From an uncultured Candidatus Saccharibacteria bacterium (lineage in GTDB: Bacteria > Patescibacteriota > Minisyncoccia > Phycocordibacterales > UBA918): a stretch of 64,000 nucleotides of DNA. The stretch spans positions 42,722 through 106,721 of the forward strand of contig CAZMYZ010000001.1 in NCBI GenBank assembly GCA_964570795.1, given 5' to 3'. The notes under the pieces were generated by a model, which worked only from the letters and a program-made list of their open reading frames with translations, ran no database searches and was not told where the DNA came from. Positions 300-61,830 of the stretch are shown here, one piece after another (positions within the stretch are counted from its first letter, which is position 1; each line of letters starts with the position of its first letter). The position numbers and the translations under genes were made by a program.

Positions 300-1050
300 C
301 ATTCAATGTTTGGTTTCGTAAACCCAACATAATTACTCGAGAAGAAGTTTTGATGGTGTGGCAGTTCGTCTGTCTGAAATATTCTGAAGATATTTCTCTG
401 TACTCCTTTGCACATCCCCAAGTTTTTCTTGAAATAGTGTTGTGGTGAGTATAGAAGGGAAGTTTCTTTTGCCAAGGTAATCTTGATAACTGCTCCATCG
501 GTACTGAAGAAGATATTCTTGAAGGTGTGAGAATTCCAATCCTTGAGTTATTGAAGAATCTCGAACTCGCCATTCTTGCGCTCCCTCAAGATAGTCGAGT
601 GGGTTGAGGTGTATGTAGTGGAGGATATATAAAAAGTGAGCGTCTGTTTCGATATGAATTTTCTTTGTACGTCCTTGAAATAGAGTACCTTTTCTTTGAT
701 ATCGTTCATTAAAATAATTTGCGTATCCAACATTAAGTTTTCGCATGAAAAGAGAGATACCACCCTCTCTACGCTCTGAGAGAAGTAGATGATAATGATT
801 GTGCATGAGAACCCATGCATGTATATCAACCAAAATCTCACGTTCTTTAATTGTGTTATCAGTAATATCACCAGGACGCCGATTTGATTGTGGTGCTGGG
901 TTTGTATCGTTGAATTCATACATGTCGTGTATAAAACGAACATAATCGCCAGAGCCTTTAAAAAGAGTCCGGCCGTCAACACCCCTGTTCAAAACATGGA
1001 ATAACTCCATATGATACAAGTATACATGTTGGGTTTACGAAACCCAACAT
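300..1050 (-). mobile_element. IS200/IS605-like (RAYT-type) element: Y1 transposase flanked by 25-bp palindromic hairpins
   Basis: tnpA ORF 333..1019 is bracketed by ATGTTTGGTTTCGTAAACCCAACAT (306-330) and ATGTTGGGTTTACGAAACCCAACAT (1025-1049); each is an 11-bp-stem palindrome and the two are mutual inverted repeats with one mismatch. Confidence 0.7.
333..1019 (-). CDS. tnpA: IS200/IS605-family Y1 (HUH) transposase, REP-associated tyrosine transposase-like
   Basis: 228 aa; motifs HAWVLMHNHYHLLL (HuH) and GRTKKIHIETDAHFLYILHYIHLNP (catalytic Tyr region) match the Y1_Tnp/RAYT fold. Confidence 0.8.
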   Translation of the reverse strand: MYHMELFHVLNRGVDGRTLFKGSGDYVRFIHDMYEFNDTNPAPQSNRRPGDITDNTIKEREILVDIHAWVLMHNHYHLLLSERREGGISLFMRKLNVGYANYFNERYQRKGTLFQGRTKKIHIETDAHFLYILHYIHLNPLDYLEGAQEWRVRDSSITQGLEFSHLQEYLLQYRWSSYQDYLGKRNFPSILTTTLFQEKLGDVQRSTEKYLQNISDRRTATPSKLLLE

Positions 1051-25452: not shown

Positions 25453-25559
25453 CCGCAAATTAAGGAACGTAGTGACTATAATTTGCGAGTCCGTCTGGAA
25501 TTCTTCCCCCCGGAAGAATTCCAGACGCCTCAAGACCCTGTAGTGAATCTATTTACGAA

Positions 25560-26898: not shown

Positions 26899-27022
26899 AA
26901 ATTAATAAACGAAGTGCATATAATTTCTGGGCCGTCATTTTTCTCCCTCTCAGAAGAAAAATGACGCACCGCATTAATTGGTTCAATTAACAGTGAATTC
27001 ATACCCTTTTAGATTTTATTCC

Positions 27023-35777: not shown

Positions 35778-35922
35778 TGGAGGCGGAGGGATTCGAACAT
35801 TACATGTTCAGTACCCGTTCAGGATAGTTTTGTTCGCCTTAAGGCTCCAAAACTATCTCTGAATGGCTTCGAATCCTGAACAGTCTCCCAGACTGTTCAT
35901 CTCCGCTTTCGCGGTGCTCAAG
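35778..35922 (-). mobile_element. ~145-bp tRNA-3'-end-associated insertion: 20-bp imperfect tRNA-Ser 3' copy plus 124-bp element with GAACATTACATGTTC palindrome
   Basis: 35778-35798 TGGAGGCGGAGGGATTCGAAC is an 80% copy of the tRNA-Ser 3' end at 35923-35943; the intervening 124 bp starts ATTACATGTTCAGTACCCGTTCAGG and resembles the element at 54358-54484; the minus-strand RNA would fold tRNA-like but is not a canonical tRNA. Confidence 0.45.
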
Positions 35923-36007
35923 CGGAGGCGAGAGGATTTGAACCTCCGAGGGCTTGCACCCTACTCGCTTTCCAAGCGAGCGCACTAGACCACTATGCGA
36001 CGCCTCC
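35923..36007 (-). tRNA. tRNA-Ser (anticodon GGA)
   Basis: 85-nt cloverleaf: acceptor GGAGGCG/CGCCTCC, anticodon arm CTCGC-TTGGAAA-GCGAG, long variable arm, T arm GGAGG-TTCAAAT-CCTCT; CCA not encoded. Confidence 0.85.
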
Positions 36008-36303
36008 GTATGTTATTTGATTATATCTCCTATGAGTGCAAACCTTCTAGTTTTCGTCCTATCATTCTTTGAATGCCTAACAGACGCTGTACACCTTATG
36101 AAGCGCACTATCGTCCTACAGACGCTGTTCATGTTGTATGATAGTTTCTTCCGTTGGTCGAAACTACCAACAACCTCTTGAGGAAGTCTCCCAGACTTCC
36201 TCACACTATGCGACGCCTCCGTGTAAGGTCCTATCTTACAAGATTTTTTTGTATCTATCTAGCATTTGTGGGAAAAATAGAAAGGCGGTATCGTAGTAGT
36301 ACT

Positions 36304-38407: not shown

Positions 38408-38431
38408 TATAAATGTTGTATAATTTGTAAG

Positions 38432-38745
38432 CGTTTGTGATCGCCCTATACGCTTAGGCATATGGGGAGGAAAGTCCGAACACACACCAGGGAAATCCTG
38501 GAAGGGTAGCGGGTAACGCCCGTCGTGGGTGACCATAGCGTTGCGAACAGAAACGACCCGGTTAAGTCCGGCTGAAACGGCTAAATACGTACTTGTGTGC
38601 AAGGCCGTGTCCAGTGAAATAGAGTTGCTTTGCAACTCTTAGTGTTCCGCACATTTCACCAGGAAGTGCCGCATGAGCGCATTGGTAACAATGCGCCTAG
38701 GTAAATGATCACACTGGTTTTCCAGACAGAATTCGGCTTATAGAC
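38432..38745 (+). ncRNA. rnpB: RNase P RNA (reduced bacterial-type)
   Basis: GGAGGAAAGTCCGAACAC (P4 5' strand), GGTAACGCCCG, CTGAAACGG and the 3' ACAGAATTCGGCTTAT (P4 3' strand; consensus ACAGAACCCGGCTTA); 5'/3' ends pair (GCGTTTGT/ACAAAC); about 315 nt. Confidence 0.75.
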
Positions 38746-38772
38746 GTACAAACAGACGCCCCTTCAAGGGGC
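38743..38772 (+). terminator. rho-independent terminator after rnpB
   Basis: ACAGACGCCCC-TTCAA-GGGGCGTCTGT-TTGT. Confidence 0.6.
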
Positions 38773-46350: not shown

Positions 46351-46509
46351 CATTCGCTAAAGCAAGAGAAATCTTTCCGCAGCGGCATTCGGATGAAATG
46401 TATACAAGCATCCACTTCGATCCTCATTTGCTGAGGTAAGAGGAATCTTTCCGCAGCATCATTCGAAACACAAATGCAAAAGTGAACTTTTGCGCTTGGT
46501 TTCTCATTC
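46351..46509 (+). repeat. two tandem degenerate copies (~77-bp period) of the tRNA-Phe 5' end/leader
   Basis: GCATTCGCTAAAGCAAGAGAAATCTTTCCGCAGCGGCATTCGG (46351) and CTCATTTGCTGAGGTAAGAGGAATCTTTCCGCAGCATCATTCGAAAC (46424), compared with the real tRNA start CTCATTCGCTGAGGTAGCTCAG (46503). Confidence 0.5.
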
Positions 46510-46582
46510 GCTGAGGTAGCTCAGTTGGTAGAGCATTTGTCTGAAGAACAAAGGGTCGGCGGTTCGAGCCCGCCCCTCAGCA
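46510..46582 (+). tRNA. tRNA-Phe (anticodon GAA)
   Basis: Acceptor GCTGAGG/CCTCAGC, D arm TAGCTCAGTTGGTAGAGCA, anticodon loop CTGAAGA, T arm GGCGG-TTCGAGC-CCGCC. Confidence 0.9.
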
Positions 46583-46640
46583 CACTGTACACAGAAAGCC
46601 CCGAAAGGGGTCTTTTCTGTGTACAGTGTGCTGAGGGAGC
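46575..46640 (+). terminator. long nested hairpin embedding the tRNA-Phe 3' acceptor end
   Basis: CCTCAGCACACTGTACACAGAAA-GCCCC-GAAA-GGGGT-C-TTTCTGTGTACAGTGTGCTGAGG, a 23-bp outer stem whose 5' arm starts inside the tRNA acceptor 3' strand. Confidence 0.5.
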
Positions 46641-47088
46641 ACGATACATAGGCATCGTGCGTGCGGGCTGAAATAGTTTGGGAAACTATTTCAGGAGGTT
46701 GTCGATATTTTGACGTAAGGAAAAATATCATACAACCTGAACTGAAGCAGTAGGCTTCGAAAGGCGGAATGATGTTGCTTTGCAACGAATGAGCCAGGGC
46801 AGGAGGCACTTAGTATTTTGTGAGGTAACGAAACAAAATACTTAGTGACCTGCGCCGAGCCTGCCACTCACTACCACGCTTCTACCAAATTCTATTTAGC
46901 AACTTGATGCCAGTATACAGAAACACCACCCAATAAAGGGTGGTGTTTCTTGTTCCCATAGGGCTGACCTATGTAATCAGAGTGTCAGCGAATTGCTGGC
47001 GGACGCCGTGCCCTCCTCTCATTCGTCAGCGAACAGATTGTAAGTCATCAAAAAAATAGGCTCCAAAGCGGAGCCTATCATAGAGCGT

Positions 47089-49364: not shown

Positions 49365-49477
49365 TTAAATATTGTACCATTTTGGAAAAGGAAATCCCCA
49401 GGGAATGCCAATTCTTAGTTGAAAAACTAATATGCACAGGCACCTTCCATTTTTCTTCCGGGGGGAAGAAAAATGGA

Positions 49478-49625
49478 AGGGCTCAGAAAATATAGTTCTT
49501 ACAGAACCTGTCCAATCATTGGGTCTTTTGTCTCATTTCACCTGCCTGCCGGCAGGTTCACAAAAGCCCTCAATGAGTCTTGCGAAGTGATATTAAATCA
49601 CTTCTCACACTAACGCTCTTTATTT
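49478..49625 (-). repeat. ~130-bp structured repeat, copy A (inverted relative to copy B at 61698-61830)
   Basis: The reverse complement aligns with 61698-61830 (GAGCGT(T/C)AG(T/C)GTGAGAAGTGA...TCACTTCGCAAGACTCATTGAGG...CAAAAGACCCAATGA...TGGACAG); the core hairpin shows compensatory changes (GAAGTGAT/ATCACTTC vs GAAGTGAC/GTCACTTC); copy A also carries a CCTGCCGGCAGG palindromic insertion and an adjacent 17-bp-stem hairpin at 49443-49480. Confidence 0.55.
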
Positions 49626-54039: not shown

Positions 54040-54337
54040 GAAATTTCTACGCTGTGGCTCGCATCAGGGTCCGGAAGCAAAGCCTTTTGCTTGGTGGTGT
54101 CAGGTTACTAATTCGCTGCTCCAATAAACTGTTCGTGGTCACGAATCGCTAACTATATTTCTTCGCTACGCTCGAAATCCAGTAAGCGTTCTCGACCCCC
54201 GCCTCGCGGTTTTTCTTTCTGAGAAGAAAGAAAAACATCGCTGTGGCTCGCACTGAGGTACGCAGGCAAAGCAGTTTGCCTGCTAAACCAAAAAACAATC
54301 ATTCCTAAGAATGATTGTTTTTTGGTTTACCTCAGTG
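54040..54337. repeat. tRNA-trailer repeat region: ~85-bp dispersed repeat plus two-hairpin module (copy 1 of 2)
   Basis: 54118-54210 (GTGGTCACGAATCGCTAAC...TTCTCGACCCCCGCCTCGCGG) is homologous to 60845-60925; 54251-54337 is CACTGAGGTA-[GCAGGCAAA-GCAG-TTTGCCTGC]-[TAAACCAAAAAACAATCATTC-CTAAGA-GAATGATTGTTTTTTGGTTTA]-TACCTCAGTG; CGCTGTGGCTCGCA occurs twice. Confidence 0.5.
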
Positions 54338-54485
54338 CGCGATACAGGACTTGAACATTACATGTTCCGTTCAGGTTGTATGACGATTTCTTCCGTTGGT
54401 CGAAATCGTCGACAACCTCTTCAAGTCCAGGGCGACTGTTTACTAAAAAAAGCCAGACACAAGGCCTGACTATTTTTAGTAAAAG
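54335..54485 (-). mobile_element. ~150-bp insertion at the tRNA-Val 3' end: 23-bp perfect direct repeat of the tRNA 3' end flanking a 127-bp element
   Basis: GTGCGCGATACAGGACTTGAAC occurs at 54335-54357 and again as the real tRNA-Val 3' end at 54485-54507; the intervening 127 bp starts ATTACATGTTCCGTTCAGG, resembles the tRNA-Ser(GGA) element and holds a long bulged hairpin (GACGATTTC...GAAATCGTC). Confidence 0.5.
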
Positions 54486-54558
54486 TGCGCGATACAGGAC
54501 TTGAACCTGTGACCCCCACAATGTCAATGTGATGCTCTACCAACTGAGCTAACCGCGC
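54486..54558 (-). tRNA. tRNA-Val (anticodon GAC)
   Basis: Acceptor GCGCGGT/ATCGCGC, D arm TAGCTCAGTTGGTAGAGCA, anticodon arm TCACA-TTGACAT-TGTGG, T arm ACAGG-TTCAAGT-CCTGT; no CCA encoded. Confidence 0.85.
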
Positions 54559-61172: not shown

Positions 61173-61244
61173 TGACCCCACGGAGAATCGAACTCCGATT
61201 TCCAGGATGAAAACCTGATGTCCTAACCGTTAGACGATGGGGCC
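61173..61244 (-). tRNA. tRNA-Glu (anticodon UUC)
   Basis: Acceptor GGCCCCA/TGGGGTC, D arm TCGTCTAACGGTTAGGACA, anticodon arm TCAGG-TTTTCAT-CCTGG, T arm CGGAG-TTCGATT-CTCCG; no CCA. Confidence 0.85.
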
Positions 61245-61462
61245 GGACGAAATTCTTTAATTTTGTCCGGCCCCATCGTCGATGACGAGGGGTGAGAAAG
61301 TCTGGGAGACTTTCGCAAGACCTTGCCTGATATTTTTTGAGGCAAAAAGCCGAAGAAAAATATCGACAAGGTGTACAGTCCCTGTAAGGGACAATATACT
61401 CCGAACCTCGCTATACTACCGAAAAATCAAAAAAAATGCTAGTTTTATAATTCATACACTCT

Positions 61463-61697: not shown

Positions 61698-61830
61698 TTA
61701 TGAGCGTCAGCGTGAGAAGTGACTTGATGTCACTTCGCAAGACTCATTGAGGACTTTTGTGAATGAAATGAAACAAAAGACCCAATGAGTGGACAGTTCC
61801 TGTAAGGAATTAGAATTGGACGCCGAATCC
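61698..61830 (+). repeat. ~130-bp structured repeat, copy B
   Basis: See copy A (49478-49625); contains hairpin GAAGTGAC-TTGAT-GTCACTTC and the conserved CAAAAGACCCAATGAGTGGACAG block; also a palindrome GCAAAGTATATTTTCTGC...GCAGAAAATACTTTGC just upstream (61637-61680). Confidence 0.55.

Follow-up and report, generated by a model that had tools for sequence, protein, structure and literature searches.

The 64-kb stretch of DNA analysed here (the window, to whose full length all coordinates refer) is part of the chromosome of a member of the Patescibacteria, i.e. the Candidate Phyla Radiation (CPR), and has ordinary housekeeping genes, those for MurJ, LepA, LeuRS, TsaD, GroEL/ES, RNase J and a class A RNase P RNA; the closest relatives of its TsaD are found in metagenome-assembled genomes labelled Candidatus Paceibacterota or Kaiserbacteria. 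The subject of this analysis is a short non-coding unit lodged at the gene for tRNA-Val(GAC). As the first-pass annotation, made from the letters alone, had described, a perfect 23-bp direct repeat of the tRNA 3' end is present at this locus: the 23-mer AGTGCGCGATACAGGACTTGAAC (as read on the plus strand) occurs twice with 100% identity, once within the functional tRNA and once as an orphan, with 127 nt in between (54357-54483). By our own arithmetic, 64 kb of random sequence would yield about 3e-5 exact 23-nt pairs. The repeat has the sequence GTTCAAGTCCTGTATCGCGCACT on the tRNA strand and comprises G53, the T-loop, the 3' strand of the T-stem, the 3' strand of the acceptor, A73 and two further nucleotides. 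The 127 nt and one 23-nt repeat together make up one insertion unit of 150 nt. Identical tRNA, insert and orphan are found in Logan contigs of both SRR16481187 and SRR16481186, and this identity in two independent assemblies excludes a single-assembly artefact, which had been named as a possible refutation. Breaks of the Logan contigs near the tRNA were considered as a sign of insertion polymorphism and rejected, as the contigs overlap by 30 nt inside the tRNA body, away from the repeat.

The insert consists of an ordered series of parts (Table 1). The tRNA is directly followed by a terminator-like palindrome (X), with its terminator-like site at 54471->54451, which alignment with the related locus L010 (L numbers denote loci from related genomes and metagenomes) identifies as part of the inserted block, L010 having no X. 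Next comes S', a degenerate antisense copy of the tRNA 3' end, which in the window, together with GTAAA, is also complementary to the first bases of X and which is found in L008 too, there with a perfect CAGGACTTGAA. The long bulged hairpin that had been noticed in the insert is borne out by folds (hpB) and is followed by a conserved junction and a second hairpin (hpC), the 3' arm of which (GTTC) doubles as the first bases of the orphan T-loop copy.

Table 1. Units, modules and their parts in the window (S, 3' part of the tRNA; S', its antisense; class I and class II, the two structured cores described in the text).
Feature	Position	Strand	Basis or remark
tRNA-Val(GAC), intact, no encoded CCA	54485/6-54558	-	ARAGORN; Rfam tRNA 67.9 bits
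Direct repeat copy 1 (S), within the functional tRNA	54484-54506	-	G53 in the T-arm to discriminator A73 plus CT
X, A/T-flanked palindrome, terminator-like hairpin and T-run, directly 3' of the tRNA	54439-54483	-	terminator scan, fold, alignment
S', degenerate antisense of the tRNA 3' end	54420-54439	-	local alignment; ACAGTCGCCCTGGACTTGAA vs perfect antisense AGTGCGCGATACAGGACTTGAA
hpB, long bulged hairpin	54373-54418	-	AGGTTGT c GACGATTTC ... GAAATCGTC at ACAACCT; folds and covariation
Conserved junction GAACGG (family consensus G(A/U)ACnG)	54367-54372	-	family alignments
hpC, GAACA-UGUAA-UGUUC, 5-bp stem, conserved family loop UGUAA	54353-54367	-	folds, covariation
Direct repeat copy 2 (orphan S), then the original trailer of the locus	54334-54356	-	repeat search; L010 alignment
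Older, decayed class II unit behind the tRNA-Val orphan	54093-54328	-	orthologous in L010
Bidirectional terminator in this unit	54285-54328		
GCAAA-CUGC-UUUGC hairpin in this unit	54261-54284		
Antisense of tRNA end and old trailer in this unit	54247-54260		
Structured middle of this unit, ending ...GTAACCTGAC	54093-54114		
Unit downstream of tRNA-Phe	46574-46865	+	palindrome, hairpin, anti-T segment, class II middle, decayed orphan
Class I module at tRNA-Phe, nested in the class II unit	46665-46761	+	covariance model; the nested 88 nt at ~46670-46756
Class I copy downstream of tRNA-Ser(GGA)	35778-35904; module 35792-35904	-	diverged orphan 3' end 35778-35798
Class I copy upstream of tRNA-Ser(GGA)	36108-36222; module 36108-36207	-	covariance model
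Class I copy 1-3 nt past the leuS stop codon	49491-49611	-	~90% identical to the 61709-61813 copy
Class I copy upstream of tRNA-Ser(CGA)	61289-61395	+	covariance model
Class I copy downstream of tRNA-Ser(CGA), lepA-type first hairpin	61709-61813	+	covariance model

The insert at tRNA-Val is one of seven window copies of a hairpin module of about 100 nt (class I). A covariance model seeded with six of these, from which the copy downstream of tRNA-Ser(GGA) was left out, gave with filters off exactly seven matches in the window and recovered the left-out copy at 42.6 bits (E=1.6e-9); a second model, based on 44 copies, returned the same seven and scored that copy at 65.8 bits. Since the copy was found by a model built without it, the similarity between the tRNA-Ser(GGA) and tRNA-Val loci is not limited to tRNA-derived bases, and the block that had been reported as common to them (35789-35819 vs 54347-54377, 81%) is real. 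The two loci thus indeed belong to a single element family, which is much larger than the pair originally seen, with its seven window copies and its units at a fifth of the sampled tRNAs of relatives; of the architecture, the repeats and the insert had been recognized and the antisense copy that defines it had been missed. Applied to 1.06 Mb from 80 related loci or genomes, the models detect 38-42 copies. In the 44-copy alignment, which is itself fitted to the model, 83% of the cells are paired, as against 56% in shuffles and 40-49% with slid partners, and 29 of the 31 pairs show compensatory changes. For hpC (helix 4) pairing amounts to 92.9%, with four of six pairs compensatory and 13 G.U pairs against a single A.C; hpA and hpB show no G.U excess. 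The helices of the core covary, and its loops and junctions are kept, across genomes whose TsaD proteins are only 50-60% identical. All copies have the orientation of the tRNA or gene upstream of them.

Only tRNA and RNase P reached threshold in a gathering-threshold scan of the window with Rfam 15, and E-value scans of four element regions gave chance-level matches only and no known RNA family. The RNase P RNA (38424-38756) is itself a divergent one of the CPR type, scoring only 122.9 bits at a gathering score of 100. A scan of Joint Genome Institute (JGI) metagenomes for the family pattern gave 14 matches on 14 contigs, on four of which the model found six matches (three in L104, where they adjoin tRNA-Arg and tRNA-Phe, and one each in L099, L105 and L107). 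An origin from phages was rejected on the basis of pattern scans of IMG/VR, which gave four chance matches and zero model matches. Full-text literature searches found no description of such elements, and the family is apparently undescribed so far and lineage-wide in the Paceibacteria, i.e. the 'Kaiserbacteria'-like Patescibacteria.

The general unit, read along the tRNA strand, has the order S-X-S'-M-S. Herein, S is the tRNA's own 3' part, from about T-loop position 54 to the discriminator plus 0-5 nt; X is the terminator-like palindrome; S' is the antisense of S plus the first bases of X; M is a structured core, in class I composed of hpB, the junction and hpC; and the second S is the orphan, after which the original trailer of the locus resumes. 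In relatives, the majority of copies are located 20-70 nt downstream of a same-strand tRNA, with a direct copy of the 3' part of that tRNA immediately behind them. The association with tRNA genes is far beyond chance: 19 of the 38 model matches lie at most 120 nt from a same-strand tRNA (expected 1.5; maximum 7 in 2000 random placements). Independently of the model, we searched for direct repeats of at least 14 nt of a tRNA 3' end at 100-215 nt downstream, and such an orphan was found for 40 of the 197 tRNAs in related Paceibacteria loci, representing six or more identities and dozens of genomes, against 0 of 197 in the upstream control. Five of the six window tRNAs carry one or more units. 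The repeats start at T-loop positions ~53-58, the T-loop start having been guessed correctly beforehand, and they are 14-41 nt long and mostly perfect; their outer ends coincide with RNA ends (tRNA +1/-2; discriminator +0-5), and at some loci they reach further past the end (+15, +24 nt).

The antisense segment S' is always present between tRNA and orphan, 70-100 nt upstream of the latter, and complements the S and the start of X on the tRNA side, not the trailer of the orphan. It has an A opposite U71 where the tRNA has a G2.U71 pair and is therefore a true antisense that does not derive from the 5' strand of the acceptor. In most cases a small conserved hairpin splits S' exactly at the junction of acceptor and T-stem; it is of one of two types, either with the loop UGGGAGA or of the form GCAAA-CUGC-UUUGC. 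In predicted folds, the S':S helix closes a three-way junction with hpB and hpC. The cores fall in at least two unrelated structured classes and this closing helix is predicted for both, with class I joining the orphan at about T54 and class II at C56.

The class II core, ..GAA-AgGCGGAG..hairpin..CGAGyC..hairpin..cTGAC, is likewise bounded by an antisense and a sense copy of a tRNA 3' end and matches no Rfam family. Besides the two window loci (Table 1) it is found in L008, L012, L017, L022, L024, L040, L050, L052, L063, L073 and L074. Class I modules are nested inside class II units at tRNA-Phe in the window and in L020. The palindrome of the tRNA-Phe unit (46574-46637) contains the last 9-10 nt of the tRNA and their complement. 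At tRNA-Val the units are stacked, a young class I unit with its perfect repeat being followed by an older class II unit that is shared with L010. Downstream of this array lies a 44-nt direct repeat with 77% identity (54050-54093 and 54239-54282) that contains CGCTGTGGCTCGCA.., antisense of the tRNA-Val end and a GCAAAG..TTTGC hairpin, which suggests a further, older partial unit.

Comparison with relatives shows that units have been gained. The tRNA-Val of L010 (72% TsaD identity) is identical except for one D-loop base, the 150-nt block is absent, and the tRNA runs directly into the terminator, the GCAAAC hairpin and the antisense segment that follow the orphan in the window. L008 (81% TsaD identity) has X and S' as in the window, followed by a different, truncated core and no orphan. 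At tRNA-Phe it is L008 that lacks the 88-nt class I module of the window, with the surrounding class II unit and flanks about 95% identical. From these differences in presence and absence between relatives it follows that the units are mobile or duplicative without a gene of their own, as had been proposed.

The order S-X-S'-M-S is the exact product of one reciprocal crossover within S, which is why we favour a model that starts from a circle, and we consider it quite conceivable, with a chance that falls a little short of even, that the unit is a non-coding, gene-less, non-autonomous integrative element that makes use of a folded site. The element would be a small circle S-X-S'-M, probably single-stranded or rod-like, whose S':S stem would fold so as to imitate the double-stranded 3' segment of the tRNA. 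A recombinase encoded elsewhere would catalyse a single site-specific crossover between this circle and the tRNA gene of the chromosome, at the T-loop edge of S, and thereby yield S-X-S'-M-S; the double-stranded form would mask the site, so that units would accumulate and decay. In keeping with such a circle, the tRNA-side S and X are borne by the element and the orphan keeps the original trailer, as L010 shows, S' is complementary to the trailer on the tRNA side, and X provides the rebuilt tRNA with a terminator-like hairpin. Second orphans farther downstream in tandem arrays, the two kb-sized intervals with cargo that are described below, with S'-M at the distal orphan in L020, and the predicted three-way junction closed by S':S fit such a circle as well.

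In essence this would be the logic of CTXphi attP(+) and integron attC transferred to tRNA genes. Both of these are folded single-strand sites, with an inverted imperfect copy of the site, a structured spacer and recombinases that are encoded elsewhere, the folded attP of CTXphi being used by the host XerCD. The units resemble attC and the integrative mobile elements exploiting Xer (IMEX) in having no recombinase gene of their own and in having two imperfect inverted target-like copies around a structured spacer of 20-100 nt that can be folded to a mimic of the target; in addition, the inverted copy and spacer end up beside one direct repeat, tandem units accumulate and the integrated double-stranded form would be masked. 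They differ in that the target is a tRNA T-arm/acceptor segment or the 3' end of a gene instead of dif or attI, in that XerC/D arms and R/L boxes are absent, in that the whole unit can be as small as ~150 nt and gene-less, and in that the stem sequence is specific for each tRNA.

Direct repeats that start in the T-loop of a restored tRNA with a terminator behind it are also what integrase-encoding islands or prophages would leave as attL/attR remnants upon loss of their interior, i.e. cis-mobilizable elements (CIMEs). Arrays point in the same direction, with second orphans at 260-490 nt downstream of eight tRNAs, and so do two tRNA-to-orphan intervals of 1.5-2.2 kb (L020 and L039) that hold cargo open reading frames (ORFs; a C39 peptidase and unknowns), S'-M being located at the distal orphan end in L020. 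An array-like arrangement is seen as well in L062 (8617-8980), where tRNA-Ser(CGA) is followed by a tandem pair of identical class I units, so that the 22-25 nt tRNA end is there in three copies. What the units share with tRNA islands, prophages, CIMEs and tycheposon-type islands is thus the 3'-part repeat from the T-loop, the regenerated tRNA and the arrays of partial copies. Nevertheless, no recombinase was found in the two kb-sized intervals and no integrase gene or relic either there or in the window, all 40 short inserts fall in the narrow range of 100-215 nt without a deletion series, the antisense copy of the tRNA end and the conserved, covarying core are foreign to attP arms, no inverted core-type arm is present beside the orphan T-loop, the IMG/VR pattern scans were without the module and the core is also found upstream of tRNAs and at the ends of protein genes. 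The earlier suggestion of att remnants after internal deletion is therefore poorly supported, and we regard this origin as highly improbable.

A strict targeting of tRNA 3' ends, as had been supposed, proves too narrow a description. The class I core also occurs upstream of tRNAs, immediately behind a direct copy of the tRNA 5' part that starts at +1 or -2 and extends as far as the D-loop, D-stem or anticodon loop, such that the order becomes orphan tRNA 5' part, module, promoter-like spacer and tRNA. Examples are tRNA-Ser(GGA) of the window, where a perfect 19-nt copy of the 5' end (AC plus positions 1-17; 36204-36222 vs 35991-36009) precedes the module, and the Val, Arg and Glu tRNAs of L010, L077 and L079, respectively. 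Two other arrangements were observed at tRNA 5' ends of the window. Upstream of tRNA-Phe (46351-46465) there are two tandem, decayed 41-nt units, each opening with a copy of CATTCGCTGAGGTA (5 upstream nucleotides plus positions 1-9 of the tRNA) and continuing with AGAGRAATCTTTCCGCAGC, perhaps the first hairpin of the module in collapsed form. At 61233-61280 there is a perfect 16-bp palindrome in which the 5'-terminal 12 nt of tRNA-Glu, together with 4 further nucleotides, face an inverted copy of themselves; it directly adjoins the class I module upstream of tRNA-Ser(CGA) and forms a 5'-end counterpart of the S-X-S' palindromes.

The core is found at the 3' ends of lepA and leuS as well. In five genomes the stop codon of lepA is the start of the class I core (L010 12371-12597; L015 17173; L018 20750; L023 20175; L048 20747; with a remnant in L021). 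There the last lepA codons and their antisense form the first hairpin, the loop of which contains the stop codon, and a weak copy of these codons lies 3' of the core. The hairpin and the coding sequence covary, one of the pairs being G.U, and genomes without the module encode the same LepA C-terminus; the window's own lepA (end 44838) has a plain terminator and no module. In L010 a second module has been inserted into the first at lepA, and 32 nt from the 3' end of the first module are present as a direct repeat. The lepA-type first hairpin is also present in the window copies after leuS and downstream of tRNA-Ser(CGA), which suggests copying from site to site. Directly downstream of the leuS copy lies one of three occurrences of a terminator-like palindrome CATTTTTCTTCC..GGAAGAAAAATG with similar flanks (25475-25518, 26936-26963 and 49448-49496).

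Conserved structure of this kind would also be expected of an RNA that functions in the host, which we consider rather unlikely, yet the main rival of the folded-site element. Such an RNA would be transcribed with or after the tRNA and fold into the three-way junction, the modelled S':S helix copying the acceptor/T-stem minihelix up to the discriminator, and it could serve as a tRNA-end mimic or as a switch in which S' would pair with either the tRNA's own 3' part or the orphan, thereby acting on 3'-end maturation, stability or the readers of the acceptor end (RNase P/Z, the CCA-adding enzyme, synthetases), with spread by secondary duplication. In support of it we note that all copies run in the direction of the tRNA or gene that precedes them; further arguments are the covarying helices with UGUAA, UGGGAGA, GCAAA-CUGC-UUUGC and the junctions kept over deep divergence, the convergence of two unrelated cores on the same S':S-closed design, the tracking of the coding sequence by the lepA hairpin, the G.U preference in hpC, the coincidence of the repeats' outer ends with RNA ends and the position of the S' hairpin, exactly where in a tRNA the D and anticodon arms leave the acceptor/T stack. 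On the other hand, a terminator-like hairpin and T-run separate the tRNA from S' and no promoter is seen, the units are patchy among close relatives with cores swapped or deleted, only about 20% of the tRNAs have one, S' is often imperfect, which weakens the proposed helix, the G.U excess does not extend to hpA and hpB, and palindrome-templated correction at the DNA level can mimic covariation. Compared with known tRNA-like RNAs (the tRNA domain of transfer-messenger RNA (tmRNA), viral 3' tRNA-like structures, mascRNA), the unit shares a predicted acceptor/T-stem mimic with the cognate discriminator and extra domains that emerge at the site of the tRNA core arms; it differs in that no tRNA or tmRNA model matches, the T-loop is paired and the 5' strand is a perfect antisense instead of the tRNA 5' strand.

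The palindromes behind the tRNAs change fast. Between the window (46583-46637) and L008 the terminator palindrome after tRNA-Phe is wholly different in sequence, the flanking tRNA end and its antisense copy being identical; in the hairpin that follows, the loop CATAGGCA is kept and the stem sequences are swapped. This suggests that palindrome centres turn over very rapidly and that their arms do so in concert.

Wholesale replacement of terminator palindromes between identical flanks is one of the observations that could be accounted for by a passive origin, in which fold-back or template-switch synthesis at hairpin-rich tRNA 3' flanks would extend a palindrome to S-X-S', and homology-facilitated illegitimate recombination after DNA uptake, with the conserved tRNA or gene as its anchor, would do the rest; the orphan would then be the displaced end of the recipient and the shared cores common local sequences that were carried along. 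The repeats indeed stop where conservation between genomes stops (the tRNA end, the stop codon), or at some loci 15 and 24 nt beyond it, microhomology is found at junctions (the hpC 3' arm and the TTC of the T-loop; GGCT at the Phe insertion; AACATGT/AACGTGT at a transposase locus elsewhere in the window), and that locus, unrelated to the units, has a 61-nt repeat of the 3' end of a neighbouring gene too. A passive process is, however, difficult to reconcile with junctions that are precise and class-specific, with one ordered architecture at 40 tRNAs, with core sequences conserved over deep divergence and with tight insert lengths, and we take it to be improbable. On the points listed for and against, passive template switching and island remnants both rank below the functional RNA.

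The recombinase that the folded-site element would need is one encoded elsewhere: among the ORFs of the window, which cover 64 kb of the genome, no integrase, reverse transcriptase, Cas1 or DDE transposase was found. The only gene of a mobile-element type encodes a Y1 (IS200-type) transposase (333-1019, minus strand) that resembles the tyrosine transposases associated with repetitive extragenic palindromic (REP) sequences (RAYTs), a homologue of Y1_Tnp by Pfam (28.1 bits) and of the REP-associated transposases by NCBIfam (39 bits, which is below the model cutoff of 80). Homologues are widespread in Paceibacteria (2464 at E<=1e-10). The gene is flanked by inverted palindromes GTATACATGTTGGGTTT-cgt-AAACCCAACATGTATAC (~306-331 and 1019-1058), and on the outside also by the two copies of a 61-nt direct repeat of 89% identity (235-295 / 1046-1106), which corresponds to the last part of the adjacent ArsR-like ORF up to and including its stop codon; its homologues in L091-L095 have kept the gene and the palindromes and lack the 61-nt repeat. 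As to this repeat, a diversity-generating retroelement was rejected, because an A in one copy is concerned in no more than 3 of its 7 differences (2 of 7 with the copies exchanged) and no reverse transcriptase was found in the window.

This transposase brings up REP/REPIN-like elements, mobilized as single-stranded DNA by a conserved RAYT-type Y1 (HUH) enzyme. The modules are, like REPs, extragenic hairpin elements at the 3' ends of genes, and a RAYT-type homologue is at hand in the window and widespread in the lineage. But the palindrome that flanks the transposase (GTTGGGTTT-cgt-AAACCCAAC) is unrelated to the modules and confined to the side of the gene, with all 17 matches in 1.24 Mb adjoining it and none dispersed, so that the dispersed modules and the local RAYT hairpin differ in sequence family; no modules lie near RAYT homologues, the orientation of the modules follows the tRNA and no single replication direction, and transposition of the Y1 type (IS200/IS605) creates no long repeats. 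We give this possibility hardly any credence. More generally, the units are like miniature inverted-repeat transposable elements (MITEs) and REP/REPIN in being small, non-coding, hairpin-forming, extragenic, multi-copy, mosaic, patchy and mutually nesting, and they are unlike MITEs in that their inverted repeats are derived from the target instead of being element-specific and their direct repeats measure 14-41 nt as opposed to short target-site duplications; no parent autonomous element, as a MITE would have, was found in 1.24 Mb or in the window.

Other known systems fare no better. Casposons use tRNA 3' ends, and with these and CRISPR the units have in common a duplicated segment of about 20-40 nt and tandem units behind a fixed 'leader', here the tRNA; at tRNA-Val the proximal unit moreover looks younger than the distal one, a CRISPR-like polarity. 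They are unlike both in that the window has no cas1, the inserts are homologous structured modules instead of diverse captured DNA and casposon inverted ends are absent. Several further candidates were rejected: a retroelement of the primer-binding-site type or tRNA-primed reverse transcription, as S' complements the genomic trailer and not CCA, and the window has no reverse transcriptase; hammerhead, twister, pistol and hairpin ribozymes, T-box, k-turn and C/D box, whose junction lengths and sequences are, by eye, unlike those of the module; and group I/II introns, for which the module is too small. In a 2026 survey of tRNA introns in Patescibacteria, those of group I are reported to be confined to anticodon-loop sites and those of group II to be absent (PMC13011429). 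In sum, the units fail the defining tests of CIMEs and islands, MITEs, REP/RAYT, Cas1-type integration, retro-elements and all Rfam families, and they follow the logic of IMEX and attC without belonging to either.

Several points weigh against the folded-site element that we favour. We infer the crossover from the order of the parts alone, and likewise the circular or single-stranded form and the enzyme. The empty-site allele at tRNA-Val, that is the tRNA joined directly to ..CTGAGGTAAACC, was sought in JGI metagenomes with zero matches. No inverted core arm, as in classical tyrosine-recombinase cores, is found 5' of the orphan T-loop, where instead the arm and loop of hpC lie (..TGTAAT/..TGTAAGA, not ACAGG-like). 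The S' of the window has about 5 differences in 20, against an orphan that is perfect (23/23), and a degenerate S' beside a perfect orphan requires gene conversion, selection or an intentionally imperfect stem. Finally, the minority 5' flavour has no antisense copy and the model would need additions to cover it, and the copies at lepA and leuS look more like a maintained RNA structure.

As it stands, we would place the units with the non-autonomous integrative elements of tRNA genes, with a substantial chance that they deserve a class of their own. More broadly, it is a realistic, if somewhat less than even, prospect that they represent either a new class of ultra-small (~150 nt), gene-less integrative elements or a new family of tRNA-minihelix-mimic RNAs that control 3'-end maturation. 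Patescibacteria have tiny genomes in which tRNA genes are mostly single-copy. If the units are integrative, they would be the smallest integrating elements known and would extend the folded-site strategy that relies on host recombinases to tRNA genes, which would join dif and attI as targets of folded hairpins; about a fifth of the sampled tRNA loci of relatives would have been remodelled in this way, and an explanation would be at hand for those orphan tRNA fragments of CPR genomes that otherwise pass for relics of lost islands. If they are RNAs, they would be widespread, unannotated mimics of tRNA ends, well placed to influence the maturation of tRNAs. In both cases they are an issue for annotation, with their pseudo-tRNA ends and their conserved 100-nt structures that lack a database family, and with their defined junctions, defined RNA folds and public read sets the units constitute a testable system.

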